From positions 1 through 43,971 of the IMG/VR virus record IMGVR_UViG_3300045988_020849: a stretch of DNA of 43,971 nucleotides; one strand, 5' to 3'. How positions within the stretch are numbered: the stretch's first letter is position 1; each line of letters begins with the position of its first letter. The notes below the pieces were generated by a model, which did no database searches, had not been told where the DNA came from, and saw nothing but the letters and a program-made list of their open reading frames with translations. Position numbers and translations under genes: made by a program. Positions 1 to 43,971 of the stretch are shown here, piece by piece. Origin of the DNA: a virus.

Positions 1-115
1 AAACGCGGTGGTTAGCGGAAACGCGGTGGTTAGCGGAAACGCGGTGGTTAGCGGAAACGCGTGGGTTCGCGGAAAAGCGTGGGTTCGCGGAAAAGCGTGG
101 GTTGGCGGAAACGCG
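1..115 (+). repeat. Tandem 18-nt repeats (ggaaacgcggtggttagc and variants) encoding hexapeptide repeats; continuation of the array at the 3' end of the window
   Basis: About six consecutive 18-nt units read directly. The first 46 nt are identical to the last 46 nt of the window. Confidence 0.9.
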
Positions 116-385
116 GAGATATTTAAAACGTCTCATTGCCTTGTAGTTGGCCCGATCGGTAGCAGAAATGATTTCACAACATTTTTCCGCACAAAGTATC
201 TTACAATCGGTGTAAAATGCGGATGCTTTAGAGGGGACATAGATCAATTTTTCGAAGCCGTAGAGAAAACGCATGGGAACAATAAGTATGCACGGGCGTA
301 TAAAGCTGCTATTGCACTGGCAAAGTTACAGATTGATTTAGGCGAGGAGGATTCCGATGAAGAAGAGACTGGAAAAGAAAGTTGA
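2..385 (+). CDS. C-terminal part of a hexapeptide-repeat (left-handed beta-helix-like) phage protein; the 5' part is 43744..43971 (gene spans the circular junction)
   Basis: Track ORF 8..385 opens in frame from nt 2 (NAVVSGNAVVSGNAWVRGKAW...). With a 10, 28 or 46 nt end overlap the frame matches the ORF that starts at 43744. Confidence 0.75.
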   Translation, partial: NAVVSGNAVVSGNAVVSGNAWVRGKAWVRGKAWVGGNAEIFKTSHCLVVGPIGSRNDFTTFFRTKYLTIGVKCGCFRGDIDQFFEAVEKTHGNNKYARAYKAAIALAKLQIDLGEEDSDEEETGKES

Positions 386-9440: not shown

Positions 9441-9558
9441 AAATTAAGAAAAAGACAAAAGCGGCGGACCACCCGCCAAGATGATTCCGCCGCTACATAG
9501 AAACTGCTTGTTCAAGTCCATTATAGCCGACTTGAGCGTCAAAATCAAGGAGGTACTT

Positions 9559-10596
9559 ATGAGTAATATTAAATCCGATATAATCAATGATATCACCGTT
9601 ACGATGTCCGTATATATTCAGGACAGAGAAGTCCTTGATGTATTGGAGCTTGTGTTGGCTAATGAGCTTATGAAGGTAAATGTCGAGGAGATCACGACTC
9701 TTCCGGCAGAAGTTAAAAGTAGCGTAGATCAGCGTAATGCTTATCTGGTGCAGCTCTTTATGATCCAGAAACGCCACCTAAAAAAGCGCACGATTGAGGC
9801 ATATATGGGATCGGTACGCCGCTTGGTGCTGGCTACAGGGAAACGTCTGGATCTTATCGACACGTTGGATATTGATTGGTATCTGGCACAATACGAGAAG
9901 CACAAAGGCGTGAGGACGGAACAGATCACGAACCGAACTTACAATAACGAGCGCCGGAATCTCTCTGAATTCTTTACGTGGATGCGGAAGTCAAAGATCA
10001 TACAGGACAACCCTGTAGATAATGTGGACGCGAAAAAGGTTGTTATGGGGAAAATCGACTACTATAGCCGGGAGGAGATCATTGAGCTGCGGGATGCGTG
10101 CAAAACAAAGCGTGATCGTGCCATTATCGAGGTATTCCGTTCCACGGGTGCGCGTGTAGGTGAGATCGCAGAGATCCGCCTGGATCAAGTGGATATGCAT
10201 ACCGGGGACATCCCGATCATTGGTGAGAAGGGCGGACGTGCCAGAACATTATATCTGGATGCAGAGGCGAGATATTATCTTGCAGCGTATCTTGATGAGA
10301 GGAAGGATAACAGCCCGTACCTCTTTACCCAGACCGTAGGTGCAAAGCGAGGGAGGATGGGGACGGCAACGTACCGGACTATAATGAGAAAAATCGGCAA
10401 GCGTGCGAAGATCCAGAGCCGTGTGTATCCGCACAAGATGCGTAAGACACTGGGAATGGATCTCAAGCAGCACGGACTTGATATCGGAATCATCCAAGAG
10501 ATCCTTGGGCACGCGTCACCGGCAGTTACAAGTATGTATTATGCTCAATCTACAACAGAGTCGTTGCGGGCGATAAGGCAGAGAATGAGCGCATAG
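9559..10596 (+). CDS. Tyrosine site-specific recombinase (XerC/D-like), not adjacent to attP
   Basis: Catalytic signature ARVGEIAEIRLDQVD, HKMRKTLG, LGHASPAVTSMYY. ATG 9559 is preceded by AAGGAGG; the track ORF is extended to 9481. Confidence 0.85.
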   Translation: MSNIKSDIINDITVTMSVYIQDREVLDVLELVLANELMKVNVEEITTLPAEVKSSVDQRNAYLVQLFMIQKRHLKKRTIEAYMGSVRRLVLATGKRLDLIDTLDIDWYLAQYEKHKGVRTEQITNRTYNNERRNLSEFFTWMRKSKIIQDNPVDNVDAKKVVMGKIDYYSREEIIELRDACKTKRDRAIIEVFRSTGARVGEIAEIRLDQVDMHTGDIPIIGEKGGRARTLYLDAEARYYLAAYLDERKDNSPYLFTQTVGAKRGRMGTATYRTIMRKIGKRAKIQSRVYPHKMRKTLGMDLKQHGLDIGIIQEILGHASPAVTSMYYAQSTTESLRAIRQRMSA

Positions 10597-10605
10597 GAGG
10601 AAAAG

Positions 10606-12042
10606 ATGATTAACGGAGAATTGATAGTGGATAATTTTGCCGGAGGAGGTGGAGCAAGCACCGGAATAGAAGATGCAACTGGATTCTGTGTAGACATTGC
10701 CATCAATCACGATCCGGAAGCGATTAAGATGCACAAAGCGAATCATCCATACACAGAGCATTACTGCGAGGATGTATGGCAAGTGGATCCGATCAAAGCG
10801 TGCAAAGGGCATCCCGTTGGACTGGCGTGGTTCTCTCCGGACTGTAAGCATTTCAGCAAGGCTAAGGGAGGAAAACCAAAAGATAAATTTATCCGTGGGC
10901 TTGCATGGGTAGCGTGCAGATGGGCAGGAATGGTCCGCGCGAGAGTGATCATGTTGGAGAATGTTGAGGAGTTCAAGACATGGGGACCGTTGAATCGTGC
11001 TCATCATCCAATTAAATCAAAACAGGGTAAGACCTTTGAAAAGTTTTTGCAACAGCTTACAGATCTCGGATACGAAGTACAGTTTCGGGAACTCGTGGCA
11101 GCAGACTACGGGGCACCGACAATGAGAAAACGCTTCTTTCTTATCGCGAGATGTGACGGAAAGCCCATCGTATGGCCAAGGCCTACACACGGACCGGCGG
11201 ACAGCGCAGAAGTGAAAGCCGGGTTGCTAAAACCGTACGTTGGAGCATATACGCAACTTGACTTTTCTCTTCCGTGTCCATCTATTTTCGACACGTCCGA
11301 GGAAATCAAAAAGAAATACGGTATCCGGGCAGTGCGCCCGCTTGCAAAAAAGACAATGGATCGAATCGCCAGAGGAGTCAAAAAGTTCGTGCTGGACAAC
11401 CCGGTTCCGTTCATCATCAAGGATGAATCAAACGATATAAAAATGCCGATTCTGATCCAGTACCACTCAGAAACAACAAAGGATGAGGTTCGTGGACAGG
11501 GGATCGAGGACCCAATCATGACGGTGGACAGCTCAAACCGGTATGGACTTGTGGCATCCTTCATCAGCAAGTTCTATAAGAGCGGAACCGGACAGGATGC
11601 GAGAGAACCGCTGCATACAATCACCGCCGGAGACGGGCATTTCGGAGAGGTGCGAGCATTTCTGACCAAATATTACGGATCCGGCACCGGGCAGAATGTA
11701 AAAGATCCGCTTGACACGATCACAGCGCAGGACCGGTTCGGGCTGGTAACAATCTACGGGACCGAGTACCAGATTGCGGACATTGGCCTGCGGATGCTGG
11801 AGCCTAAAGAGTTGTATGGATGTCAAGGATTCCCAGAGGATTACATCATTGACCGGGATTGTGATGGTAAGGCATATCCGAGAGCGGAACAGGTGAGAAG
11901 ATGTGGGAATGCTGTGTGTCCGCCGATACCTACAGCCCTGGTAAGGGCAAATCTAAAAGAACTGTGCGTTGCAAAAAGGCTACCGAACTGCCGGGCTGAT
12001 CGGTCGGGGCAGGACGATAGCGGGCAACTGAGATTTGCATAA
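10606..12042 (+). CDS. DNA (cytosine-5)-methyltransferase
   Basis: Motif I DNFAGGGGAS, motif IV FSPDCKHFS, motif VI ENVEEF, QGFPEDY and GNAVCPP. Length 478 aa. Confidence 0.9.
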   Translation: MINGELIVDNFAGGGGASTGIEDATGFCVDIAINHDPEAIKMHKANHPYTEHYCEDVWQVDPIKACKGHPVGLAWFSPDCKHFSKAKGGKPKDKFIRGLAWVACRWAGMVRARVIMLENVEEFKTWGPLNRAHHPIKSKQGKTFEKFLQQLTDLGYEVQFRELVAADYGAPTMRKRFFLIARCDGKPIVWPRPTHGPADSAEVKAGLLKPYVGAYTQLDFSLPCPSIFDTSEEIKKKYGIRAVRPLAKKTMDRIARGVKKFVLDNPVPFIIKDESNDIKMPILIQYHSETTKDEVRGQGIEDPIMTVDSSNRYGLVASFISKFYKSGTGQDAREPLHTITAGDGHFGEVRAFLTKYYGSGTGQNVKDPLDTITAQDRFGLVTIYGTEYQIADIGLRMLEPKELYGCQGFPEDYIIDRDCDGKAYPRAEQVRRCGNAVCPPIPTALVRANLKELCVAKRLPNCRADRSGQDDSGQLRFA

Positions 12043-12166: not shown

Positions 12167-12216
12167 AAAAAAGATCCGAACTTGTAAGAATTATATACGA
12201 GTTCGGATCTTTTTTT
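12167..12216 (+). terminator. Rho-independent terminator ending the early/DNA-modification operon
   Basis: Stem agatccgaac (12172-12181) pairs with gttcggatct (12201-12210), extendable by ~5 bp. An A-run precedes it and T6 follows. Confidence 0.8.
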
Positions 12217-12281
12217 GTTAGGAAAATGTGGGGGCGATTTTGCGACAGGAGAGATGATAAAATGATACAAAGGGGGATCAT

Positions 12282-12542
12282 ATGCCAAATCTCAGCGCAA
12301 TCGTAAAGAAATTACAGAGAGCAATCTTATCAACAGGGCTTGTGATCAAGATTGGAAGCAGCCAGTTCTACAGCGCGGACCAAGGCCGCATGATAACCAT
12401 GTGGAGTCTGAGCACGCCCGTGATGGAATACGGCAAGGGCAAATGGAAGATGAGAGATCTGGAGATACTTAGGACGGCATCACAGGCGGATGTCGTGCTG
12501 ACCCTCAAGGAGATATGGGAACAATCACAAGGATGGGAATAG
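12282..12542 (+). CDS. Hypothetical protein (86 aa), first gene of the late operon
   Basis: Track ORF with an AGGGGGA RBS. Confidence 0.55.
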   Translation: MPNLSAIVKKLQRAILSTGLVIKIGSSQFYSADQGRMITMWSLSTPVMEYGKGKWKMRDLEILRTASQADVVLTLKEIWEQSQGWE

Positions 12543-12552
12543 GAGGAGAAAC

Positions 12553-12792
12553 ATGGAGAGAGACATTGTAACGACTGGATACAACGGGGAGATGCTACAA
12601 TGCAAAGTGTGCGGGATTAAATTCCGCCCGACAACATGGAGAAGATATACCGCGGTTGGCAATAAAACAACAGGAATGGCGGCCGCGTTCGGAGGGACAG
12701 AAAAACCGATCATATACGATGCTTTTGACTGCCCAAACTGCGGATGCCAGATCATCGTAAATGAGAGACTGAGAAGAGCAGGCGATAACTAA
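12553..12792 (+). CDS. Zinc-ribbon protein (79 aa)
   Basis: CKVCG...CPNCGC. AGGAGGAG RBS. Confidence 0.55.
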   Translation: MERDIVTTGYNGEMLQCKVCGIKFRPTTWRRYTAVGNKTTGMAAAFGGTEKPIIYDAFDCPNCGCQIIVNERLRRAGDN

Positions 12793-12809: not shown

Positions 12810-14438
12810 ATGGTGAAACTTACGCCAAGGCGGGAAGCGTTCGCAAAAAATTTCGTAAAAAATGGTGGGAACGCAACCGATGCGGCGAGAAAAGCTGGAT
12901 ATAAGAAGCCAGAAGCAGAGGGATGCAGACTGTTAAAAAATGCTGACGTATTAGCGTATATAGCCGAGAAGCAAGCCGAGTTGGACAAGCAGAACGGCAC
13001 GGACATCATGTCTCTGGCGGACATCCAGCGGCGGCGCGCTATGATCGCACGTGGAGAACTCAAGGATTCATTCGGATTCACTCCGGCATTCTCCGAGCAG
13101 CTCAAGGCGATGTCAGATCTCGAGAAAACGCTCACCATCAAAGAGAAGAGAGAAGAAGAGAAGAAAGCAGAAGAAGCGGCGAGACTGTCACAAGAGTACC
13201 ACATGGATCTGGACATCATCGCTGACGTGTTCCACCCGATGATCCGTGACGTGCGGCGCGGCTTGCATACCGAATACATTTTGCCCGGCGGACGTGGATC
13301 CACGAAGTCATCCGGGATTTCCTGCATCATTCCGGAGCTGCTGAAAAATCACCAGGATATGCACGCGCTTGTGCTGCGAAAAGTCGGGAACACAATTAAG
13401 GATTCCGTGTATGCACAGCTCAAGTGGGCAATCTCAAAGTTGGGACTTGACGCAGAATTCCGGTTCAAATCATCCCCGTTTGAGATCACATACAAGCCGA
13501 CCGGGCAGAAGATCTATTTCAGAGGCGCGGATGATCCACTCAAGATTAAGTCCATCAAACCGGAATTCGGATATATTGGCATTGTGTGGTTCGAGGAGCT
13601 GGATCAGTTCGCTGGGCCGGAAGAGGTCCGCAACATCCAGCAGTCCGCAATCCGAGGCGGAAATAAAGCGTATAAATTTAAGAGCTTCAACCCTCCGCGA
13701 AGCAAAAACAACTGGGCGAATGAGTACACCACAGAAGCGGAATTCAAGGACACGAGCGCTATTGTTGTCCACAGCACATACAAGGATGTTCCAGCGGATT
13801 GGCTGGGCGATCAGTTTATCAATGACGCGGAACATCTGAAAGAAGTCAATCCAAACGCTTACGAGAACGAATACATGGGTGTAGCCAACGGCAACGGCGG
13901 CAATGTGTTCGAATTCATTGAGGAACGGACCATAACGGACGAAGAGATCAGCCGCATGGATCGCATTTATCAAGGTGTTGACTGGGGATGGTATCCGGAC
14001 AAATATGCGTTTGTTCGTCTGCATTACGATGAGGCGCGAGAAACTATCTATTTTCTGGATGAGATGTATGAAAACAAGCGGAGCAACACATGGACAGCGG
14101 ACGAGATCAAACGGCGTGGATACACGGACTATGTGATCACATGCGACAGCGCGGAAAACAAGTCCGTGAATGACTACAGAGACGCCGGACTACCCGCCAG
14201 AGGGGCAGAGAAGGGACCGGGAAGCGTTGAATATTCGATGAAGTGGCTACAGGGGAAGAAACTTGTGATAGACCCGAATCGCACTCCGAACGTCTGCGAA
14301 GAGTTCGAAAAATACGAGTATGAGCGCGACAAGGATGGGAATATTATCAGTGGGTACCCGGACAAGAACAACCATCTCATAGATGCAACCAGATACGCAA
14401 CGGAAACCAAGTGGAAGAGAAGAGGAAGCAGCGCATAA
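12810..14438 (+). CDS. Terminase: small-subunit-like N-terminal domain fused in frame to a PBSX-type large subunit
   Basis: aa 1-~130 are Terminase_2-like (KLTPRREAFAKNFVKNGGNATDAARKAGYKKPEAEGCRLLKNADVLAYI). From about M132 it is TerL-like with Walker A GGRGSTKSS. No stop codon lies between the two parts. Confidence 0.8.
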   Translation: MVKLTPRREAFAKNFVKNGGNATDAARKAGYKKPEAEGCRLLKNADVLAYIAEKQAELDKQNGTDIMSLADIQRRRAMIARGELKDSFGFTPAFSEQLKAMSDLEKTLTIKEKREEEKKAEEAARLSQEYHMDLDIIADVFHPMIRDVRRGLHTEYILPGGRGSTKSSGISCIIPELLKNHQDMHALVLRKVGNTIKDSVYAQLKWAISKLGLDAEFRFKSSPFEITYKPTGQKIYFRGADDPLKIKSIKPEFGYIGIVWFEELDQFAGPEEVRNIQQSAIRGGNKAYKFKSFNPPRSKNNWANEYTTEAEFKDTSAIVVHSTYKDVPADWLGDQFINDAEHLKEVNPNAYENEYMGVANGNGGNVFEFIEERTITDEEISRMDRIYQGVDWGWYPDKYAFVRLHYDEARETIYFLDEMYENKRSNTWTADEIKRRGYTDYVITCDSAENKSVNDYRDAGLPARGAEKGPGSVEYSMKWLQGKKLVIDPNRTPNVCEEFEKYEYERDKDGNIISGYPDKNNHLIDATRYATETKWKRRGSSA

Positions 14439-15898: not shown

Positions 15899-17134
15899 AT
15901 GCTCGAACCGGCATACTTACAGCGCATAGCGGAGGGGGCGGAAGAGATTGCCGCAGACCTGCACGGTTATATCCTCCGGAAGATCGTGGAACGCATGATG
16001 ATCCGGATCGGGCGCGGCGATGAATATCTTTTTACCTCCGCGGATCGCTGGCAGATTGAAATCATGCAGGACTCCGGCGCGCTGATGGAGGAAATCATCC
16101 CGGAGATCGCGAAGCGGACGAAGCTCCAGCAAAAAGAAATCAAGGAAGCAATGGAAGAGGCGGGAATTAAGGCGGTAGAGGCGGATGATAAGATCTATGA
16201 AGCCGCCGGACTTTCCCCACTCCCGCTCATGGAGTCTCCGGAGCTGATCCGGCTGATGCAGCGCAACTATGAGGCAACCCTCGGCGAGTGGCGGAATTAC
16301 ACCAGAACGACCGCAGACGTGGCACAGAAGCTTTTTATCGACTCCTGCGACACCGCATACCATAAGATTACAAGCGGCGCGGCATCGTACACACAGGCGG
16401 TCAGAGAAGCGGTTGACGAGGTGGTTTCTGGCGGCGTATATGTCGATTATACCAACGCTGAGACAGGAAAGACCCATCGCGACACGATCGAGACAGCCAC
16501 AGCCCGGGCAGTGCGTACGGGGGTAGGCCAGGCAACCGGTGCGATCAGTCTGGCACGCATGAATGAGATGGAATGGGACATCATCCTTGTTTCGGCGCAC
16601 TTAGGAGCGCGAACCGGAGACGGTGGAGAGAACCCCGGCAATCATATGTGGTGGCAAGGGAAATTCTACTCCAGATCAGGCAGAGACAAGCGTTTTCCAC
16701 CGTTTTCCGTCACTGGATACGGGAGCGGCGAGGGGCTGTGTGGGTGGAATTGCCGCCACAGCTTCGGGTCCGGAGACGGTGAGAACAACCCATATAAGGG
16801 CATAGAAACCGAAGAGAGTGAGAGAATAGAAAAGCTTGAGCAGCGCCAGCGAACGCTTGAGCGCAGGATCCGGAAGACGAAGCGGATTGTCTCCGGGATG
16901 CAGACGGCCGTGGAATCCTGCAAGGATCCGCAGGCAAAAGCAGCGCTGCAAATGGATCTTGACAGAAAATCATATCTCTTACAGCGCCAGAAGGCGGCAT
17001 ACAATCAGTTTTGCGATGACAACGATCTTCGACCGCTGGCGGACCGTCTGAGAATTGCCAGATGGGGAAGAGAACAGGCAGCGAAGGCGCGCGGAGCGGC
17101 ACGAAGATATCAAAATGCAACGGAGGATAAATGA
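15899..17134 (+). CDS. Minor capsid / head morphogenesis protein (SPP1 gp7-like, minor capsid protein 2 family)
   Basis: 411 aa following the portal, with N-terminal LQRIAEGAEEIAADLHGYILRKIVERM. Confidence 0.65.
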   Translation: MLEPAYLQRIAEGAEEIAADLHGYILRKIVERMMIRIGRGDEYLFTSADRWQIEIMQDSGALMEEIIPEIAKRTKLQQKEIKEAMEEAGIKAVEADDKIYEAAGLSPLPLMESPELIRLMQRNYEATLGEWRNYTRTTADVAQKLFIDSCDTAYHKITSGAASYTQAVREAVDEVVSGGVYVDYTNAETGKTHRDTIETATARAVRTGVGQATGAISLARMNEMEWDIILVSAHLGARTGDGGENPGNHMWWQGKFYSRSGRDKRFPPFSVTGYGSGEGLCGWNCRHSFGSGDGENNPYKGIETEESERIEKLEQRQRTLERRIRKTKRIVSGMQTAVESCKDPQAKAALQMDLDRKSYLLQRQKAAYNQFCDDNDLRPLADRLRIARWGREQAAKARGAARRYQNATEDK

Positions 17135-20762: not shown

Positions 20763-21374
20763 ATGATGATTGCCTTCCGGAGCAAGATGGATGTAAAAAG
20801 CGTGGAAGATGTTTTCTCTGAGATCAACGCGCGGCAGATCGCAGCGATCATGATCCATGATCAGATGGCGGATTATTTCGATTTTCTCGGATTGAGCGGT
20901 TATAAGCGGTTCCATCTGTATCAGTATTTTGCTGAGAGTGAGGAACGCCGCAAAACTGCACATTACTATATCAATCACCACGGGAAACTGATCCGCGACA
21001 CCTTCGAGGGGAACGTGCAGATGATCCCGGAAGCGTGGCAGTCTGCAAACCGCATGAGTGTAGGAAAGTCCACCAAACAGAAAGCGGTGGAAGATGGATT
21101 CTCTGCACACCTCGCATGGGAGCAGTCCACAAAGGACGTGTATCAGAAGTATGCGACAGCTCTCAGAAGCATGGGAAATGTTGCAGATGCTATATTTGTG
21201 GATAACCTCGTGTGTGATGTGGATAACGAACTTGAGCGGCTGGAACGGATCATAACAGACCTTATTACCGCCGGATATGATCCAATATACATCATGGAGA
21301 GTCAGAAGCCACTCCACGATAAATACAAAAAGAAAATGAAGGGAGGAATGAAGCATGAAAGAGCTGATAAATAA
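20763..21374 (+). CDS. Ferritin-like superfamily protein (tentative)
   Basis: IHDQMADYFDFLGLSGYKRFHLYQYFAESEERRKTAHYYINHHGKL resembles a ferritin/Dps helix pair (G..F...EE...H). GGAGGTGA RBS. Confidence 0.35.
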   Translation: MMIAFRSKMDVKSVEDVFSEINARQIAAIMIHDQMADYFDFLGLSGYKRFHLYQYFAESEERRKTAHYYINHHGKLIRDTFEGNVQMIPEAWQSANRMSVGKSTKQKAVEDGFSAHLAWEQSTKDVYQKYATALRSMGNVADAIFVDNLVCDVDNELERLERIITDLITAGYDPIYIMESQKPLHDKYKKKMKGGMKHERADK

Positions 21375-21777
21375 GCTTAAGGATCAGCTGAATCTGGAAG
21401 CAAAGGAAGCTGTGAACAACCTGACGGCATCGCGGCTGGATGTGATCTATAAGCTCACGGCGGCAATCTGCTATCTGGAAAAGATGGACGGAAAAGAGTG
21501 GGAAGAAAGCCGTGTTGCTGACGTGGCGGAGGATGTGATCAAGAAATACTCCAATGGGAGATATGATCACAACATCGATTCCCTGTATGATCGCTACATT
21601 GCTGCGAAACAGGCGTACAAACAGAACGGCGATCAGGCACACCGTGACAAGCTCATGGAGTGCGTTGGGCGGCTGATGGTGGAGGTGTATGACATGCTCT
21701 CTTCGATGGTCATGGACAGCGATTTTACGGATGAGCGGCAGGAGATACAGAGATACATCCGCAAGCTCGGAGATTAG
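21355..21777 (+). CDS. Hypothetical helical protein (140 aa)
   Basis: Track ORF with a GGGAGGAATGAAGC RBS context. Overlaps the upstream gene by 20 nt. Confidence 0.55.
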   Translation: MKELINKLKDQLNLEAKEAVNNLTASRLDVIYKLTAAICYLEKMDGKEWEESRVADVAEDVIKKYSNGRYDHNIDSLYDRYIAAKQAYKQNGDQAHRDKLMECVGRLMVEVYDMLSSMVMDSDFTDERQEIQRYIRKLGD

Positions 21778-21812
21778 CCTAAAATGTGGGGGTAAAACGG
21801 ATTTTGGGATAT

Positions 21813-21875
21813 GGTAAAATAAAAACGTGGGGATATTATGGACCCCCACTCCCATACGGGACCATGCTTTTTGTT
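21813..21875. terminator. Bidirectional terminator region
   Basis: Minus strand: GTGGGGGT...ATCCCCAC hairpin (21827-21849) followed by GTTTTTATTTTA. Plus strand: atggaccc (21838-21845) pairs with gggaccat (21858-21865), followed by gctttttgtt. Confidence 0.5.
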
Positions 21876-22169
21876 GCCATACCTCCTTTATTCGTACGGC
21901 ACGCACGCCCTTAAGAGAAACCCGGCATGATCGGGGAGGTTGAAAAGCGGATGCAATTTCCGGCGTGCGACTGCCCCACCCCCCCGGGGGGCATAGTGCA
22001 GAGCATAGCACGAGAAAGTTACTTGCTAACCGGCATCGCCGGTTACGGAGAGTTGCGCAGAACATTGCCGGTTCGCTGCCGGCACTCTCCACTTCCGCCC
22101 AGCAACGGGGCGGGGACTCATTTTCTTATCAATATACTAATCCCTGTCATCCTCTCGGCAGGGACGCAA
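21876..22169 (+). ncRNA. Candidate structured non-coding RNA (GC-rich, hairpin-dense); strand not established
   Basis: No credible ORF. Stems seen: 21973-21977/21988-21992 around a C7G6 tract; 22028-22034/22038-22044; 22047-22053/22084-22090 enclosing 22067-22071/22079-22083; 22095-22100/22108-22113; 22141-22146/22159-22164. Confidence 0.35.
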
Positions 22170-22243
22170 GGACCATTCGCCCAATCGGTGAGGGCATCCG
22201 GCTCATAACCGGACGGTTCGGGGTTCGATTCCCTGATGGTCCA
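22170..22243 (+). tRNA. tRNA-Met(CAU): tRNA with anticodon CAU (elongator Met, or Ile2 if lysidinylated)
   Basis: Manual cloverleaf: acceptor GGACCAT/ATGGTCC, U8, D arm GCCC-AATCGGTGA-GGGC, anticodon arm TCCGG-CTCATAA-CCGGA, variable CGGTT, T arm CGGGG-TTCGATT-CCCTG, discriminator A. 74 nt, no encoded CCA. G1-C72 argues against an initiator. Confidence 0.85.
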
Positions 22244-22323
22244 TTACCCTGCCGGTGGTTCATCCGGCTCAATCCATTACCGCTGACGAGCGGTTTAAAA
22301 ATGGCGTTTAGGAGGATAATTAT

Positions 22324-22965
22324 ATGCAGAATTACGAACAGATCTTACAGGAGCTTGGGATTGAGATCCCGGAGGATAAGAAAAACGATCTGAAGGCGAA
22401 GATGAGTGAAAACTATCGGGCAAAATCAGATTATGACAATGTGGTGCGCAAGAGGGACGAATATAAAACATCCCTTGACGATGTGCGGGAAAAGCTTGAC
22501 GGATTCAAAGATGTTGATGTCGATGATCTGAAAGGACAGATTGCAACACTGACAACGCAGCTTAGCAATGAGAAAAAAGCGCGTGCGGATGACGCGCGGA
22601 AAATCGAAGTTGAAAAGACTGTGAATGATTTCTTGTCTTCCACGGATGATAAGGGGAACAAGATGTATGAGTTTTTGAACGACATCACAGAAGATCATTA
22701 TCGCAACGCTCTCGTGGAAGAACTGGGAAAAGATTCCGCACGGGGAAAGTCTATCGGCGACATCTTCAAAACGATGACCACCGGAGAGAACGGAACCCAG
22801 AAGACCGGGATTTTCGTTGACAGGCAGCAGGAACGCGCAAAACAGAACGCGGCGCGCTTCACCAAACCGGCAAGCAACCCGAACAACGCACCGAAATACA
22901 CGATGTCCGAGCTGATGAAGATGAAGAACGAGAATCCGGATCTTGACATCAAACAGTATATGTAA
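22324..22965 (+). CDS. Capsid scaffolding protein (phage GP20 family)
   Basis: MQNYEQILQELGIEIPEDKK..., highly charged coiled coil directly upstream of the major capsid gene. Confidence 0.75.
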   Translation: MQNYEQILQELGIEIPEDKKNDLKAKMSENYRAKSDYDNVVRKRDEYKTSLDDVREKLDGFKDVDVDDLKGQIATLTTQLSNEKKARADDARKIEVEKTVNDFLSSTDDKGNKMYEFLNDITEDHYRNALVEELGKDSARGKSIGDIFKTMTTGENGTQKTGIFVDRQQERAKQNAARFTKPASNPNNAPKYTMSELMKMKNENPDLDIKQYM

Positions 22966-22974
22966 ACGAACGAC

Positions 22975-23045
22975 CGGCGGCACGTTTTGAGTGCTGCCGC
23001 TAACCTACACACCTTTTAACAGTTATGGGTAGAAAGGATTTTTTT
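22975..23045 (+). promoter_or_regulatory. Conserved stem-loop leader, copy A (upstream of major capsid gene)
   Basis: Hairpin 22975-22983/22991-22999 with loop gttttga. A 23-nt exact match (22985-23007) to 28210-28232, and a similar RBS context (agaaagg...attttt..ATG). Confidence 0.7.
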
Positions 23046-24221
23046 ATGGCATTATTCGACCTTAAGAATTTTAATGGCGAAGTATTTGGCGCATATGTGG
23101 ACACCGTCCCGAACCTCAACAGAAATGCACTGTTAAAGTCCGGCGCGATCGTGGAGAAATCCCAGTATGCGGCTATGCTGCCGGATCAGACGGGCGGCAA
23201 CTATATCACGGTGCCGATCAAGGCGAGAATCGGCGGTACACCGGACAACTATGACGGCTCCACCAACATCACAGCAGATTCCAGGGAGACGTACACACAC
23301 GGTAGAATCGTTGTTGGCCGTGCTCATGGATGGACAGAGAAAGACTTCTCTACAGACATCACAGGCGAGGACTTCCTCCCGGCTGCGCAGGAAGTCGCAG
23401 AGTATTGGGATGATGTGGATCAGGAAACGCTTCTTGCAACGCTGAAAGGCGTCTTCTCCATGACGGGAGCTGAGAACCTTAAGTTCGTGAACGGGCACAC
23501 CTATGACGTATCCCTCGACCCGACAAATAGCGGATTCGCGGAGACCACCCTCAACAACGCCATTCAGAAAGCCCTCGGAGACAATAAGGCGAAATTCAGC
23601 CTTGCGATCATGCATTCCAAGATTGCGACAGATCTCGAGAATCTTAAGCTCCTCGCATACATGAAGTATACAGACGGAGACGGAATCGAGAGAGACCTTA
23701 CCCTCGCAACCTTAAACGGAAGAACCGTCCTCATTGACGACAACATGCCGACAGCGGCGGCGGAGGCGAAATATGTCAAAGCATCTCAGACAGACCCGGG
23801 AGCGCTCAAAGTTACGACCGCAGGCACCGGAGCGGGTGAGGTCGCAAAAGCAAGCGTAACTACAGACATTCCGGACGCGAACGAAGGTGATTATGTCAAA
23901 CTCCTTCCGGCTGGAACTGTATACACCACATACGTTCTCGGCGCTGGTGCAATCGAGTACACAAACTGCGGTGTAAAAGTCCCGTATGAGATGGACAGAG
24001 ACGCAAAGACTAACGGCGGCGTGGATACTTTATATTCCCGTCAGAGAAAGATTTTCTCCCCGTATGGTATCAGCTTCAAACAGCCGTCCTTCATCTCCCC
24101 GACAAACACACAGCTTGAGACTGGCGCAAACTGGGAGCTTGCGAATAACAACTCGACTTCTGCAAAGAAGTATTTCCCGATCAAAGCGATCCCGATCGCA
24201 CAGATCAAGACCAGAGGCTAA
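23046..24221 (+). CDS. Major capsid protein
   Basis: 391 aa after the scaffold, N-terminus MALFDLKNFNGEVFGAYVDTVPNLNRNALLKSGAI. The track ORF start 23025 is an upstream extension. Confidence 0.8.
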   Translation: MALFDLKNFNGEVFGAYVDTVPNLNRNALLKSGAIVEKSQYAAMLPDQTGGNYITVPIKARIGGTPDNYDGSTNITADSRETYTHGRIVVGRAHGWTEKDFSTDITGEDFLPAAQEVAEYWDDVDQETLLATLKGVFSMTGAENLKFVNGHTYDVSLDPTNSGFAETTLNNAIQKALGDNKAKFSLAIMHSKIATDLENLKLLAYMKYTDGDGIERDLTLATLNGRTVLIDDNMPTAAAEAKYVKASQTDPGALKVTTAGTGAGEVAKASVTTDIPDANEGDYVKLLPAGTVYTTYVLGAGAIEYTNCGVKVPYEMDRDAKTNGGVDTLYSRQRKIFSPYGISFKQPSFISPTNTQLETGANWELANNNSTSAKKYFPIKAIPIAQIKTRG

Positions 24222-36533: not shown

Positions 36534-36902
36534 TCAAATATAAGCAGCCATGCCACATATATATGTCAACTTTGAGGCATTAGCTCCTGTTGACATACTA
36601 ATACTTATTCCTGAAATCTCAAGAACTACGGGCGTATAGGCTGCTCTGGCCCATTCACCAACATCCCTGCCTTGTATGACTATATGTGCAGATGTAGCAG
36701 GCCGCAATTTCTCTGGTATATTGCTTGCTATAATATCATTTCCTGTAAGAGCTTTTGCCTTAATAGCGATGCTTAGAACTTTTACATTACCCACACGATA
36801 TATCCTTAGGTAGTAATCTGCGGCAGGATCATAATAATCTGGATTGAGTAAATCAGTCAGATCATTAACTTCCACACTCAAATTGTTATTTACGTAACAC
36901 AT
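36534..36902 (-). CDS. Alternative tail-fibre C-terminal cassette (silent in this orientation)
   Basis: The ORF begins MCY then VNNNLS encoded by the right inverted repeat. No RBS precedes its ATG. Inversion would fuse it in frame to aa 1-91 of the fibre gene. Confidence 0.55.
   Translation of the reverse strand: MCYVNNNLSVEVNDLTDLLNPDYYDPAADYYLRIYRVGNVKVLSIAIKAKALTGNDIIASNIPEKLRPATSAHIVIQGRDVGEWARAAYTPVVLEISGISISMSTGANASKLTYICGMAAYI
36876..36893 (-). repeat. Right inverted repeat (reverse complement gtaaataacaatttgagt)
   Basis: Read directly: plus strand actcaaattgttatttac. Confidence 0.95.
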
Positions 36903-36921: not shown

Positions 36922-37019
36922 GAAAGAGATTGTTTGGCAGGCGTTGCGGCTCCTGCATCTCTTTTAGCCACTGCGGCGCATGGTTGCAACGGAATCTACC
37001 GCCTCAAACAATCTCTTTC
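36922..37019. repeat. Long hairpin / 15-bp perfect inverted repeats flanking 68 bp
   Basis: gaaagagattgtttg (36922-36936) and caaacaatctctttc (37005-37019). The GC-rich interior has further pairing (gttgc/gcaac). Confidence 0.8.
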
Positions 37020-37072
37020 GAATTCATTATAACAGAACGATTTTTTATTGTAAAGAAAGGAGATATTATACT

Positions 37073-38149
37073 ATGGCAGATGCCTTTTTAAAGCAGTATG
37101 GCGGATCCGGTACTGGATCCGATGACTGCACAGCAAAACGAAATCAGGTACTCGCAGGCGTGACGGCCGTCACCAGCGACAGTGATGATGAAGCACTGAC
37201 CGGCACAATGCCGGAGCGTGGAAAACTGTCCAGAACACTTTCCGCTGGGGAGTCCGTGACATTATCAGAAGGACATTACGCCGGAGGCACGGTGTCCGCC
37301 CGGAGCTTGGCAAGCCAGACCGGTGGAGCAACGGCAGAAGACCGATATGTCAAGAAAGGGCTGACATACTGGAAAGATGGGGTGTTACGAACCGGAACAA
37401 TGGAAACCCAGTCCGCAATATCTTTTAGCGCAGCCGCTCTCTCTCATAATACGATCCGCGTCAGCTGGAAGAACCCGGCAAAGGGACCGTGGGAAGGTAT
37501 CCGCATTCAGATGTCTACTGACGGAACACCGGGGGCGAGCGGCGGAACAAGGGTTTACACTGGGGCTGGAAGCAATCCGAACCAAGCTAATGGGAATAAC
37601 TATGCCGATATTACCGGATTGAAGCCACTTACAAAGTACTATTTTTCCTGCACCAGCTTTTGTACGGGACTTGATGATGGAATACAAGCAGATGTTAGCG
37701 CGACTACTACCCATGTATATCTATACAATAGGGGAAACAATATCGCAGGAATTTCTGTTAGTGATGAATACACTTACAATGGGGGAATTACATTTGCATC
37801 AAATGCTATTGTTTATAGTAAAGTTGGATCCAGTCCTTGGACGGGCGGAACATTGGTAACTAATGGTAAGTGGGATCTTAGCGCATTTTCTAAATTTAAA
37901 ATGAGATGCAAAATCTCATCAGCACATTATGATCAATTTTACGTGAATGTTTTTGGAAAACAAAACAGCGACTTTGATCTTTTGTCAAATGATAAAGTTA
38001 GTCTGTCATATAGTGAGATGGTTTATGAGTCCCATTTAAGAAGTACAGCAAAGAGCTTTAATGATCGCATTTATTTCCAACTGTATAGCACAAATGGAAC
38101 CGCAGTATCCGGTATACTCGGAGAAATTTATGAGATTTGGCTTGAATAA
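37073..38149 (+). CDS. Tail fibre / receptor-binding protein with a fibronectin type III-like domain
   Basis: ATG 37073 follows AAGGAG. IRVSWKNPAKGPWEGIRIQMSTDG...ITGLKPLTKYYFSCTSF is FN3-like. AT-rich C-terminal domain. Track ORF start 36980 is an extension. Confidence 0.6.
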   Translation: MADAFLKQYGGSGTGSDDCTAKRNQVLAGVTAVTSDSDDEALTGTMPERGKLSRTLSAGESVTLSEGHYAGGTVSARSLASQTGGATAEDRYVKKGLTYWKDGVLRTGTMETQSAISFSAAALSHNTIRVSWKNPAKGPWEGIRIQMSTDGTPGASGGTRVYTGAGSNPNQANGNNYADITGLKPLTKYYFSCTSFCTGLDDGIQADVSATTTHVYLYNRGNNIAGISVSDEYTYNGGITFASNAIVYSKVGSSPWTGGTLVTNGKWDLSAFSKFKMRCKISSAHYDQFYVNVFGKQNSDFDLLSNDKVSLSYSEMVYESHLRSTAKSFNDRIYFQLYSTNGTAVSGILGEIYEIWLE

Positions 38150-39175: not shown

Positions 39176-39200
39176 ACCGGTTCAAGTCCGGTCACCGGCA
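39176..39200 (+). other. attP core: 3' fragment of a tRNA gene (T arm + acceptor strand, probably tRNA-Leu)
   Basis: ACCGG-TTCAAGT-CCGGT-CACCGGC-A. No matching 5' acceptor strand (GCCGGTG) lies upstream, so this is a fragment, as expected for a tRNA-targeting integrase. Confidence 0.65.
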
Positions 39201-39204
39201 TTGA

Positions 39205-39238
39205 AAGAAGCTTGTAAATACAGGCTTCTTTTTATTTT
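39205..39238 (+). terminator. Rho-independent terminator following the tRNA fragment
   Basis: aagaagcttg pairs with caggcttctt (10 bp, 1 mismatch) around loop taaata, then tttatttt. Confidence 0.65.
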
Positions 39239-40308
39239 GTGTTGCATTTCGTGTTGCATAACTCTGAAAAATGCGTGTTTGCTATCTCATTCATCGACAT
39301 GGTTTTGTCATCCATTGTATGGCGATACACTTCTTTTAGGGTTCCATCGTTCCCCCATCCCCCTCGCTTCATGATATAGGCATCCGGGATCCCCAATGCA
39401 TGTTGGATGGATGCGGAGTAGTGCCGGAGATCGTGGAAGCGGAACAGCTCCATTTTATTTTTCTTGAGAAGATCATGAAACTTCCTTGTGATCTGATTCG
39501 GATCCAGCGAAACGATCCTTCCCTTTTTCCCCTTTATCTTTTCGATTACAAAGTCCGGAAAATCAATATAGCGATCACCGGCGTAAGTTTTCGGCGTTTT
39601 TATGATCCATTGACGTTCCGTGTTCAAGACCATATTCTTCGTAATGTGGACCATGTTTCCGGAGATATCGTTGGATGTCAGCGCACCGATCTCCCCGCGC
39701 CGCATCGGACCGAATGCCGCAAGCAGGATCGGGATCTCCAACTCTGTCCCTTTTGCACACTCCATAAGACGCTGTATCTCCGCGTCTGTAGGCACGTAGA
39801 TCTTCGGGCGTACTTTTTCCGGGAGCTTGGTGTTCAAAGCGAAATTCGGACGATACACGCCTAAAACAGCAGCGATTAGTCCATGAGCGTTACGCACTGT
39901 CTTGGGTGCGTGATTTGCGGCAAAGGCGTTGATTGCAACCTGCACCTGCTCCTGCGTCAATGTAGGCACCTTCTGATTCATTAGCTCCTGCATGTCCTTC
40001 TTCCGGGTCCGGCGGTAGTCCATAACCGTTCTGGGTGATAGCAGGGACAACCGCTCATCAGTGTAACGGTCGATCGCTTCCCCCAACGTGAGATTCTGCA
40101 CACTCGTTGCATTCTCCTTCTCAGCGGCCCATTGAGCCGCCATCTGTTCCGCAATACGTTTTCCCTTCGGCCCAGGCACATCCGAGGTGAAGCTCTTGTA
40201 AATACGTTTGTCCTTCTTTTTTTCGGTCTTCGGATCAATAGATGTCTCAAGGTGTGAGAATATCTGGCACCTCCATGATCCAGACGGTAATTTTTTTGCT
40301 GTTGCCAT
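39232..40308 (-). CDS. int: Tyrosine integrase
   Basis: 358 aa with MRRGEIGAL, HDLRHYSAS and GGWGNDGTLKEVYRH catalytic motifs. Adjacent to attP. AAGGAGG RBS. Confidence 0.9.
   Translation of the reverse strand: MATAKKLPSGSWRCQIFSHLETSIDPKTEKKKDKRIYKSFTSDVPGPKGKRIAEQMAAQWAAEKENATSVQNLTLGEAIDRYTDERLSLLSPRTVMDYRRTRKKDMQELMNQKVPTLTQEQVQVAINAFAANHAPKTVRNAHGLIAAVLGVYRPNFALNTKLPEKVRPKIYVPTDAEIQRLMECAKGTELEIPILLAAFGPMRRGEIGALTSNDISGNMVHITKNMVLNTERQWIIKTPKTYAGDRYIDFPDFVIEKIKGKKGRIVSLDPNQITRKFHDLLKKNKMELFRFHDLRHYSASIQHALGIPDAYIMKRGGWGNDGTLKEVYRHTMDDKTMSMNEIANTHFSELCNTKCNTK
39235..39260 (+). repeat. attP arm-type repeat, copy 2 (inside the 3' end of int)
   Basis: Exact 22-nt copy of 39022-39043. It encodes the integrase C-terminal CNTKCNTK on the minus strand. 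Confidence 0.75.
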
Positions 40309-41723: not shown

Positions 41724-42104
41724 CTATTCTTTTTTGAGTTCATTCAAGATCTCTTCGATCTGCCGCCAGCGGCTTTCGTCCAGCCTTGCGAACTGTACAA
41801 GAATCTTCTTGGCGAATTCGTTGTCTCCCGTCATGACGGAATCCACGATAGCCTGCGCATCGCTATCGTCATCTTGGAACATTTCTCCGGTTCCGTTCAC
41901 AAGCCAATCATAGTTGACTTTATGGGCGGCACATATCAGCTTGATATTCTTTTCAGACAAATCTCTTTGCCCACTCTCGATCATGGAGAGTGCAGCTTGC
42001 TTAATAGCAAGCGTTTCGGCGAAATCTTTCTGATTCATACCAAGCTTCTTTCTAAGAGCAGAAACTCTTTCATTGATTGTTCCCAAATGTATCCCTCCTT
42101 TCAT
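41724..42104 (-). CDS. CI-like repressor (XRE-family HTH)
   Basis: INERVSALRKKLGMNQKDFAETLAIKQAALSMIESGQRDLSEKNI. Either a leaderless ATG at 42104, or TTG at 42086 7 nt after GGAGG. The track ORF is extended to 42377. Confidence 0.8.
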   Translation of the reverse strand: MKGGIHLGTINERVSALRKKLGMNQKDFAETLAIKQAALSMIESGQRDLSEKNIKLICAAHKVNYDWLVNGTGEMFQDDDSDAQAIVDSVMTGDNEFAKKILVQFARLDESRWRQIEEILNELKKE

Positions 42105-42108
42105 TATT

Positions 42109-42137
42109 ATGATATCACTTGTGTGATAAAAAGTCAA
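42109..42137 (-). promoter_or_regulatory. Repressor promoter (minus strand): TTGACT-N17-TATCAT
   Basis: -35 at 42137-42132 and -10 at 42114-42109. The -10 ends 4 nt before ATG 42104, suggesting a leaderless transcript. Confidence 0.5.
42114..42127. promoter_or_regulatory. Operator O1: ATCAC-TTGT-GTGAT
   Basis: 14-bp dyad overlapping the repressor promoter. Confidence 0.6.
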
Positions 42138-42156
42138 GAAAATGTGATAAAAATGC

Positions 42157-42185
42157 TTGACAAAATATAACAAGAGTGATAATAT
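42157..42185 (+). promoter_or_regulatory. Rightward early promoter: TTGACA-N17-TAATAT
   Basis: Near-consensus sigma-A type hexamers with 17-nt spacing, divergent from the repressor promoter. Confidence 0.65.
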
Positions 42186-42188
42186 ACA

Positions 42189-42202
42189 ATCACAAGGGTG
42201 AT
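42189..42202. promoter_or_regulatory. Operator O2: ATCAC-AAGG-GTGAT
   Basis: Same half-sites as O1, immediately downstream of the -10. Extra GTGAT half-sites at 42144-42148 and 42176-42180. Confidence 0.6.
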
Positions 42203-42379
42203 ACAAAAACCTTGAGCGCTTGCCGCAAATGAAAAAATCTGATGGGAGTGTCGTTCCCACCAGATCATCATCAAGTTTGTTTACCCTATATGCTTTGCAG
42301 ATTAAAAAATCGCAACCAACGACACTGGTCGCTTCTTGAAGCACCTTGTCACTTTCGCAGTCTTGAATCTGCAACATGC

Positions 42380-43747: not shown

Positions 43748-43971
43748 AGAAATATGAATTAACAGCCGAAAGCATTGTGAAGTTCGGCAGGACACTTTTT
43801 AGAATTAAGGCTCTGGTAGCCTTTGGAAATGTTGAAGAGGGAGAGCTTGGAGGATTTGTCGAGCAAGAAGGAAACCTCGCTCAGTCTGGAAAAGCGTGGG
43901 TTAGCGGAAACGCGTGGGTTAGCGGAAACGCGGTGGTTAGCGGAAACGCGGTGGTTAGCGGAAACGCGGTG
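43744..43971 (+). CDS. N-terminal part of the hexapeptide-repeat protein (3' truncated by the window edge; continues at nt 2)
   Basis: ATGA overlap with the upstream gene. MKKYELTAESIVKFGRTLFRIKALVAFGNVEEGELGGFVEQEGNLAQSGKAWVSGNAWVSGNAVV... Confidence 0.75.
   Translation, partial: MKKYELTAESIVKFGRTLFRIKALVAFGNVEEGELGGFVEQEGNLAQSGKAWVSGNAWVSGNAVVSGNAVVSGNAV
43888..43971 (+). repeat. Tandem 18-nt repeats (5' part of the array that continues at nt 1)
   Basis: Units ggaaaagcgtgggttagc, ggaaacgcgtgggttagc and ggaaacgcggtggttagc x2 plus a partial unit. Confidence 0.9.

Follow-up and report, generated by a model that had tools for sequence, protein, structure and literature searches.

A gap of 546 bases in the IMG/VR virus record IMGVR_UViG_3300045988_020849, lying between a conserved 140-amino-acid (aa) gene that ends at 21777 and the scaffold open reading frame (ORF) that starts at 22324, is a chain of small RNA modules recurring in many related phages, rather than one large RNA. 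The record was analyzed as a window of 43,971 nucleotides (nt), by which we mean the whole stretch of DNA, and it represents the genome of a temperate gut siphophage of about 44 kb and 48% G+C. The feature is real and of an ordinary kind, made up of a known Rfam motif (RAGATH-21), an intact tRNA, the remnant of another tRNA and a conserved 5′ leader. What makes it interesting is the fixed arrangement of these parts, which is undescribed as far as the literature searched shows, and RAGATH-21 and the leader are now experimentally approachable. We consider it rather probable that the gap represents the promoter and the ~495-nt 5′ untranslated region (UTR) of the scaffold–capsid operon in a temperate siphophage of the Lachnospiraceae type, and that it is composed of small RNA modules independent of one another.

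Modules in place of one large RNA

An earlier note on this DNA, made from the sequence alone, described 21779–22323 as non-coding, and our analysis agrees: the gap holds no credible ORF, and those overlapping it, 21927–22208 (plus strand) and 21292–22092 (minus strand), match no PHROG family. A protein-coding gene or pseudogene was rejected on this account, and also because the homologous regions carry tRNAs and no gene, and the length steps in the P2 stem of RAGATH-21 are not multiples of three. Thus, as had been proposed, we are dealing with structured RNA that does not code for protein and is associated with a phage tRNA, as opposed to a gene in decay; ORFs called across this gap in related records are probably spurious. 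The stems listed in the earlier note are all present both in the sequence and in minimum-free-energy folds (the C7G6 tract at 21972–21993, 22028–22044, 22047–22090, 22093–22115 and 22141–22164). The stretch 21860–22175 folds at −120.5 kcal/mol as compared to −104.2 ± 5.5 for shuffled sequences (z-score, z, −2.97; 0 of 100 shuffles as good), and the single elements of the gap have fold z of −2.2 to −4.0.

This density of stable stems, folding better than shuffles, in a phage and tRNA context like that described for the large ROOL and GOLLD RNAs (PMC5737381), is what speaks for a single ROOL/GOLLD-type RNA of ~300 nt before the tRNA, acting as a unit. However, the Rfam models of both families fail to match at the gathering score across the window or at E ≤ 10 in 21600–22500. 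The single conserved structure of several hundred nucleotides that characterizes them is likewise wanting, the gap being made up of separate conserved modules gained and lost between relatives. Only 72 nt of the pre-tRNA stretch, namely RAGATH-21, are broadly conserved. The full spacer between RAGATH-21 and the tRNA occurs only in near-identical relatives, its place being taken elsewhere by 0–3 tRNAs or a skipping-rope RNA. The ROOL/GOLLD reading is thus largely refuted and we give it hardly any credence. The same search over all Rfam families recovered four matches at the gathering threshold in the whole window (tRNA, RAGATH-21, skipping-rope and FuFi-1), of which RAGATH-21 and the tRNA fall in the gap; a permissive search of 21600–22500 (E up to 10) added noise only. 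Hence, of the sequence that the earlier note had left unexplained beyond the 74 nt of the tRNA, a further 72 nt belong to a known orphan motif. Its fallback, an undescribed RNA or a tRNA precursor leader, came close.

The relatives that support this picture were collected with the RAGATH-21 core as a DNA pattern, which matched more than 120 IMG/VR contigs and 11 bacterial genome contigs, and a further 80 loci were found via relatives of the scaffold protein. The genome contigs are mostly from Lachnospiraceae, namely Enterocloster, Blautia, Faecalimonas, Lachnoclostridium, Mediterraneibacter and Eisenbergiella, with prophage copies in the first five of these. Across the scaffold loci the order is fixed (upstream gene, RAGATH-21, 0–3 tRNAs, ~80 nt, scaffold ATG). 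Between the two widely conserved parts, RAGATH-21 and the scaffold leader, whole modules (0–3 tRNAs, a skipping-rope RNA) are exchanged among homologs. The covariation in homologous intergenic regions that the earlier note had proposed as a check is found in these two conserved parts, as compensatory changes in P1 and P2 of RAGATH-21 and in both leader hairpins.

RAGATH-21, its flanks and a promoter-like motif

RAGATH-21 (Rfam RF03097) lies at 21900–21971 on the plus strand as a four-stem junction (P1–P4), with 70.9 bits against a gathering score of 70.3 (E 8.6e-12) over positions 1–76 of the 76 in the model; seven relatives in the scanned loci score 72.6–85.1 bits. The invariant elements of the family, CUUAANAGAAA, GAG, GUU-GAAA-AGC and GGA-UGCAAUU-UCC, are all present between 21909 and 21962, and the same junction and loop nucleotides are invariant or nearly so across 46 distinct copies. 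In these 46 copies, 96.3% of the alignment cells of P1 and P2 are paired, with a covariation score of 0.533 as compared to at most 0.174 when the partners are slid. Double-sided changes are seen in 8 of the 10 P1 pairs and all 4 P2 pairs, 12 in all. P3 and P4 never vary and are neither supported nor contradicted by covariation. An alternative to them offered by RNAfold, pairing GGAGGUUG with CAAUUUCC, was rejected, as the few natural variants suit the Rfam P3/P4 better, falling in the loops of these stems or turning U-G to C-G.

With its small multi-stem junction and some 35 invariant junction and loop nucleotides, RAGATH-21 could also be an unrecognized self-cleaving ribozyme that cuts the late transcript, as has been proposed for twister and hammerhead ribozymes near similar phage genes. 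The name of the family records its discovery near genes associated with these two ribozymes, and a role of ribozymes in processing polycistronic transcripts close to phage genes has been put forward (PMC6765202). However, none of the Rfam self-cleaving classes (hammerhead, twister, twister-sister, pistol, hatchet and HDV-like) matches at E ≤ 10 in 21600–22500. Moreover, tRNA-type processing sites in the same leader already supply a cleavage mechanism, and RAGATH-21 is mentioned in no paper of the literature searched. A ribozyme activity for RAGATH-21 therefore appears quite improbable.

The position of RAGATH-21 is strongly constrained. A same-strand tRNA lies within 600 nt downstream in 88 of the 120 pattern-derived loci among the matches listed, while no tRNA is found within 200 nt upstream in any of these 120. 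RAGATH-21 stands 5′ of every tRNA called in its array in over 100 contigs of related Lachnospiraceae phages, and in 106 of the 125 loci with enough sequence the leader follows at most 1.5 kb away and then a scaffold-like gene. In the window RAGATH-21 is directly followed by a predicted GC hairpin with the C7/G6 tract (21972–21993, plus strand), and in other families a hairpin of different sequence occupies the same place. RAGATH-21 was also considered as a transcriptional riboswitch and rejected, since the hairpin after it is without a U-run in any family. In relatives devoid of RAGATH-21, another conserved hairpin-rich element of the form GACGUUC...CCUGUUAAGAG...GAACGUG is found after the same CACCUCCUUUC (L138, 2680–2760, plus strand). 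No replacement ribozyme or other known RNA was detected in such relatives at the gathering score in 20 loci or at E ≤ 5 in L138.

On the 5′ side, the part between the 5′ hairpins and RAGATH-21 in the window is the CCUCCUUU element. The CCUCCUUUA sequence at 21882–21890 (plus strand) resembles the 3′ end of 16S rRNA and has its complement in the AGAAA and GGAGG on either side of P2. Of 65 unique copies, nearly all have a CCUCCUUUC-like sequence about 8–14 nt ahead of P1. In some families it is lengthened to CACCUCCUUUCU, which we take to be the sequence of the 16S rRNA 3′ end. Occurrence of a CCUCCUUUA-type element on the plus strand is unusual for this plus-strand gene block. Going by its complementarity, this element might pair with AGAAA/GGAGG around P2. 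A small minus-strand gene behind AAAGGAGG-ATG opposite CCUCCUUU was considered and rejected: the micro-ORFs there range from 2 to 94 codons, differ in frame between near-identical relatives and are absent from many families.

Upstream of this element lies a late-promoter-like motif (21782–21820, plus strand) consisting of a AAATGTGGGGG box and an extended −10 element, TGGTAAAAT (21812–21820). Across the window there are exactly two instances of the composite pattern AAATGTGGGG-N18-30-TGNTANNNT, as compared to 0.00 expected; the second instance, at 12224–12263, follows a terminator and precedes the terminase block. Across relatives the extended −10 TGNTANNNT shows a sharp positional enrichment, with 62 hits 81–120 nt upstream of RAGATH-21 (two bins) as compared to 0–9 in any other same-strand 20-nt bin. 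It is found between −125 and −55 of RAGATH-21 in 66 of 98 unique contexts, with a conserved AAATGTGGGG or AACATGTACC box upstream of it. The motif at 21782–21820 thus combines an extended −10, a conserved position and the orientation of the genes, as expected of a sigma-70-type promoter; a promoter scan did not list it on account of its poor −35 (GTAAAA). Since the other copy stands where a late promoter is expected, before the terminase, we regard 21782–21820 as a candidate second late promoter, with a predicted start near 21827–21829. As for the upstream copy, a strong terminator (12167–12218, plus strand) is immediately followed by the AAATGTGGGG...TGATAAAAT version of the motif, after which come the small ORFs 12282–12542 and 12553–12792 (the latter with CxxC pairs) and then the terminase; the site at 12167–12263 is probably the main late promoter. 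Candidates for a late activator acting on the AAATGTGGGG box are present in the early region of this phage.

The candidate start is followed on the plus strand by two predicted hairpins, GUGGGG..CCCCAC (21827–21849) and UCCC..GGGA (21850–21861), and a U-run (21868–21872), the whole spanning 21827–21877. A hairpin with a U-rich tract is found at the same place in 14 divergent families. The earlier note had taken this region to be a bidirectional terminator. On the minus strand this is consistent with the terminator scan, which flags 21849–21827 on that strand only. On the plus strand the hairpin at 21827–21849 directly follows the promoter-like motif and is, for this reason, better read as the putative 5′-terminal hairpin of the transcript. 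The transcribed strand, which that note had left open, can be assigned as plus by four lines of evidence. First, G-U type pairs outnumber A-C type pairs in P1 of RAGATH-21 (46 vs. 9), which places that RNA on the plus strand; the others are the single strand shared by all 92 array tRNAs, the orientation of the promoter motif and the inconsistency of the minus-strand micro-ORFs.

The distance of ~70–110 nt downstream of the promoter motif, the position 5′ of the array tRNAs and the orientation with the operon would also suit RAGATH-21 as a cis-acting read-through element, comparable to the HK022 put RNA or a nut site and acting on the polymerase or a phage factor. As such, it would let the polymerase pass the terminator-like hairpins of the tRNA array, which come after RAGATH-21, into the capsid genes. 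The put RNA is also close in size to the 72–76 nt of RAGATH-21. Against this, in some families the strongest terminator-like hairpins lie upstream of RAGATH-21 and beyond its action, and the promoter, the tRNA-like element and the leader are all retained in related phages that have no RAGATH-21. Further, no sequence similarity to put was noticed, though no comparison to put was made. We consider such a role unlikely.

tRNA units and the scaffold leader

The tRNA of the gap (22170–22243, plus strand), called by ARAGORN and scoring 66.7 bits with the Rfam tRNA model, has the anticodon CAU, is of the elongator type with G1-C72 paired and does not encode CCA. It also has C4-G69 and C5-G68 pairs, which together with G1-C72 we take to be features of a lysidine-modified tRNA-Ile2 rather than a tRNA-Met. 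A tRNA-Ile(UAU) is found at the same site in related phages. A need for an AUA-reading tRNA was considered and rejected, as AUA accounts for 37 of the 342 Ile codons in the window and for none in the scaffold or capsid genes. In relatives the tandem tRNAs include Tyr, Ile, Asn, Gln, Ala, Thr, Ser and Val. The 92 unique array tRNAs share the plus strand without exception; CCA is encoded by essentially none of them, and a U-rich trailer sequence such as UUAC comes after most. In Firmicutes, CCA-less tRNA precursors are matured by RNase Z. One array upstream of a scaffold gene contains a copy of the skipping-rope RNA between tRNA-Thr and tRNA-Ala (L152, 2757–2840, plus strand).

The 198-nt spacer between RAGATH-21 and the tRNA (21972–22169) is matched by blastn at full length only in near-identical phages, while a 60-nt piece of it also matches the L168 group at 80–85% identity. 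Alignment with L168, which has three tRNAs in this place, resolved its parts. After the GC hairpin comes a tRNA 5′-leader module (21995–22046, plus strand), conserved and consisting of a GUGC-AGAGCAUA-GCAC hairpin, an A-rich linker, UUGCUA and an AACCGGC-AUC-GCCGGUU hairpin (22028–22044). This module recurs 2–3 nt before a tRNA in divergent loci (L015, L099, L128, L024 and others), and its second hairpin changes on both sides (CCGGC/GCCGG vs. CCCGG/CCGGG).

In the window it is followed by a truncated tRNA minihelix (22047–22091, plus strand; fold z −2.78), with a 7-bp acceptor stem GGAGAGU/ACUCUCC, a 13-nt linker, a T-arm GCCGG-UUCGCUG-CCGGC with a 5-bp stem, and a discriminator A. The minihelix aligns to the tRNA-Tyr of L168 with both flanks conserved and ~39 nt, corresponding to the D and anticodon arms, missing. 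Lacking a complete cloverleaf, it is called as a tRNA neither by ARAGORN nor by Rfam at E ≤ 10, and it displays instead a t-element-like architecture, a UUCRA-type T-loop arm stacked on an acceptor-like helix. The terminator-like hairpin UUCCGCCC..GGGCGGGG that follows (22093–22125, plus strand; 8 pairs of which 6 are GC in the terminator scan, z −2.77), with an interrupted U tail, is the trailer of the tRNA-Tyr position and is conserved after tRNA-Tyr in L168 and L169. Finally, a hairpin UCCCUGUC..GGCAGGGA (22141–22164, plus strand; z −3.97) stands 5 nt 5′ of the tRNA, and L168 has a hairpin of other sequence before its tRNA-Met. The chain of stems described in the earlier note is, on these sequence comparisons, a partly decayed tRNA array with its leader and trailer hairpins.

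The scaffold leader (22244–22323, plus strand) is more widely conserved than any other part of the gap, and we recovered 84 unique versions of it. It comprises UUACC, hairpin A (22251–22268), AAUCCA (22271–22276), hairpin B (22279–22294) and the Shine–Dalgarno (SD) sequence AGGAGGAU (22310–22317). By blastn it is found in 95 loci at ~79–99% identity, even where the scaffold protein is only ~45% identical, and none of the Rfam models matches it at E ≤ 10. Covariation is seen in both hairpins, A and B, with 96.5% of cells paired, 8 double-sided pairs and a score of 0.346 as compared to at most 0.063 for slid partners. RNAalifold additionally pairs the AUCC of the invariant AAUCCA with the GGAU of the invariant AGGAGGAU, in columns that never vary; this modeled pairing would mask the ribosome-binding site. 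A possible hammerhead core in hairpin B (CUGACGAG) was rejected: it has no model match and is a hairpin loop that turns to GCGGCGGC-type sequence in relatives. In Dulem virus 35 (PP511522.1, 10574–10653) a "hypothetical protein" is annotated over sequence matching the leader, and this ORF is probably spurious.

We surveyed the junction 5′ of the leader in 109 unique sequence contexts and found that the leader begins 0–2 nt after a tRNA or a tRNA-like helix in 106 of them. In 68 a called tRNA, drawn from at least 9 anticodon identities, ends 0–2 nt before UUACC. Another 38 have a T-arm with an acceptor helix that is not called as a tRNA; 22 of these are tRNA-sized and 16 are minihelices, which fall into four sequence families with linkers of 11–18 nt. 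To be scored, a helix had to combine a fully paired T-stem and UUCRA-type loop with an acceptor helix in which no fewer than 6 of the 7 pairs form; random windows taken from the same loci pass this detector at a rate of 0.4%. The three contexts that failed it are one near-miss, one uncalled tRNA-Tyr-like sequence and L203, a Faecalimonas metagenome-assembled genome contig (1740–1890, minus strand). Here the 3′ strand of P1 of RAGATH-21 and an A lead directly into the UUACC leader with no tRNA between, the only such case seen.

These junctions bear on whether the tRNAs serve only in decoding, with the minihelix and tRNA-like pieces as neutral decay and the leader as no more than a conserved ribosome-binding region. 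Clusters of tRNA genes and decayed copies of such genes are common in phages, and the AUA, Tyr and Met codon counts in the window show no obvious special demand; both are in keeping with neutral decay. Yet the acceptor and T-arm are kept at the leader junction in 38 of the 41 contexts without a called tRNA, against the 0.4% background, several tRNA identities share the same 0–2 nt junction, and the covariation of the leader hairpins goes well beyond the needs of a ribosome-binding site. We hence regard neutral decay as doubtful.

A tentative extension of the preferred reading is a tRNA-punctuation scheme for the late mRNA of these Lachnospiraceae phages, in which the cut site can be a full tRNA, a minihelix or RAGATH-21 itself, as a derived tRNA mimic; this remains a minority option in our estimation. 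P1 of RAGATH-21 (9–10 bp) stacked on the 3-bp P4 would give 12–13 bp, near the 12-bp acceptor/T-arm stack of tRNA, and the P4 loop UGCAAUU fits the T-loop pattern U-N-C-R-A. Of 71 unique copies, 38 carry an unpaired A after P1 and 25 carry AUU there, and in L203 RAGATH-21 abuts the leader where a tRNA normally sits. Counting against such mimicry, P1 can be up to 14 bp long and L203 is a single example.

Proposed processing, the phage and known systems

For the promoter and 5′ UTR reading, we propose that a late transcript would start near 21828 and carry RAGATH-21, the tRNA units and the leader, and that host RNase P and RNase Z might cut it at the tRNA and at the acceptor/T-arm minihelix. Such minihelices are minimal substrates of both enzymes. 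Cleavage would free the tRNA and a 5′ fragment bearing RAGATH-21 and leave a defined 5′ end (UUACC...) on an abundant scaffold–capsid mRNA, whose stability or translation could be tuned by the two leader hairpins and possible SD masking (AAUCCA:GGAU). RAGATH-21, as a working guess, would be a late-expressed structured RNA with its 3′ end made by the downstream tRNA-type cleavage. Such a scheme would suit a phage that must make scaffold and capsid protein in far larger amounts than its packaging proteins.

Several points weigh against this reading. The transcription start, the cleavage sites and the read-through of hairpins and U-runs are all inferred, and the RAGATH-21 of the window scores only 0.6 bits over the cut-off. 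In some families (L050) RAGATH-21 is separated from the promoter motif by a strong terminator-like hairpin; a simple 5′ UTR accommodates this poorly, and read-through or antitermination would be needed. In the window, some transcripts could end at the terminator-like hairpin 22093–22125 and never reach the tRNA. Covariation lends no support to the AAUCC/GGAU and CCUCC/GGAGG pairings, as neither varies. Common descent and recombination hot spots, instead of selection for cleavage, could also account in part for the tight junction of tRNA and leader. Nevertheless, the fixed position of RAGATH-21 offers the first concrete and testable frame for the function of this orphan motif, and the retained acceptor/T-arm minihelices suggest that Firmicutes phages may shape their late mRNAs via host tRNA-processing enzymes. 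The covarying 80-nt scaffold leader is, in turn, a candidate for a new cis-regulatory RNA family of gut phages.

The large structural genes of the window are all on the plus strand: the terminase (12810–14438), the minor capsid protein (15899–17134), the scaffold (22324–22965; Pfam Phage_scaffold, E 4.9e-13) and an ORF with a weak, sub-threshold major-capsid-like match (23025–24221). The terminase is a single 542-aa ORF in which a small-terminase domain (Terminase_2, residues 4–109) is fused to the large-terminase domains Terminase_3 and Terminase_3C. Near the right end, a tyrosine recombinase of the Phage_integrase family (39232–40308) and a helix–turn–helix (HTH) protein are on the minus strand. 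The phage has a second tyrosine-recombinase gene (9481–10596, plus strand) adjoining a DNA methyltransferase (10606–12042). About 30 nt from the stop of the integrase gene at 39232–40308, with a terminator-like hairpin between, the plus strand has at 39176–39201 an exact T-arm motif, CCGG-TTCAAGT-CCGG, and a strand like the 3′ side of an acceptor stem without its 5′ partner; this looks like an attP core with the 3′ end of a host tRNA gene. Iteron-like 18-bp tandem repeats (GGAAACGCGGTGGTTAGC and variants) are found at both ends of the window (1–120 and 43880–43971), suggesting that it is a circularly closed or permuted genome cut within the repeat array.

Of the two Rfam matches outside the gap, FuFi-1 (RF02986; 42233–42394, minus strand) scores 120.5 bits against a cut-off of 59.6 and overlaps the 5′ part of the ORF 41724–42377 (minus strand). 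The HTH domain of this ORF starts only at residue 103, and the RNA probably sits upstream of a shorter repressor-like gene. The skipping-rope RNA (RF02924; 36929–37012, minus strand; 48.9 bits) lies between the ORFs 36534–36902 (minus strand) and 36980–38149 (plus strand). Both are orphan motifs from the same discovery paper as RAGATH-21 (PMC5737381). They share this phage with RAGATH-21, but are placed elsewhere in the window and on the minus strand.

RAGATH-21 was defined as a candidate RNA by comparative genomics near ribozyme-associated genes, and the copy at 21900–21971, with the full model, the invariant nucleotides and covariation in P1 and P2, is no different from the motif as defined. 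What is new, as far as the literature searched shows, is its fixed context, downstream of the late-promoter motif, after CCUCCUUUC, 5′ of the array tRNAs and upstream of the scaffold gene. ROOL and GOLLD also reside in phages and prophages of Firmicutes, often near tRNAs (PMC5737381), but are several hundred nucleotides long, whereas the conserved units here are of 45–80 nt and independently exchangeable.

The junction minihelices invite comparison with the t-elements of plant mitochondria, to which the mascRNA element of MALAT1 is a similar case. In t-elements, tRNA-like acceptor/T-arm structures direct RNase P/RNase Z cuts that generate mRNA ends (Forner et al. 2007, PMC1920247). As in these, a GGUUCRANYCC-type T-arm and an acceptor helix are retained, with the rest of the tRNA gone, exactly at the start of an mRNA leader. 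Unlike them, the setting is a Firmicutes bacteriophage, the cleavage is inferred only, and full tRNAs and minihelices alternate at one site. The gap also resembles the tRNA gene clusters of phages in having an intact tRNA(CAU) here and tandem tRNAs in relatives. It differs from these in that the array lies within the 5′ UTR of the scaffold gene, each unit comes with conserved leader and trailer hairpins, and the last unit abuts the leader.

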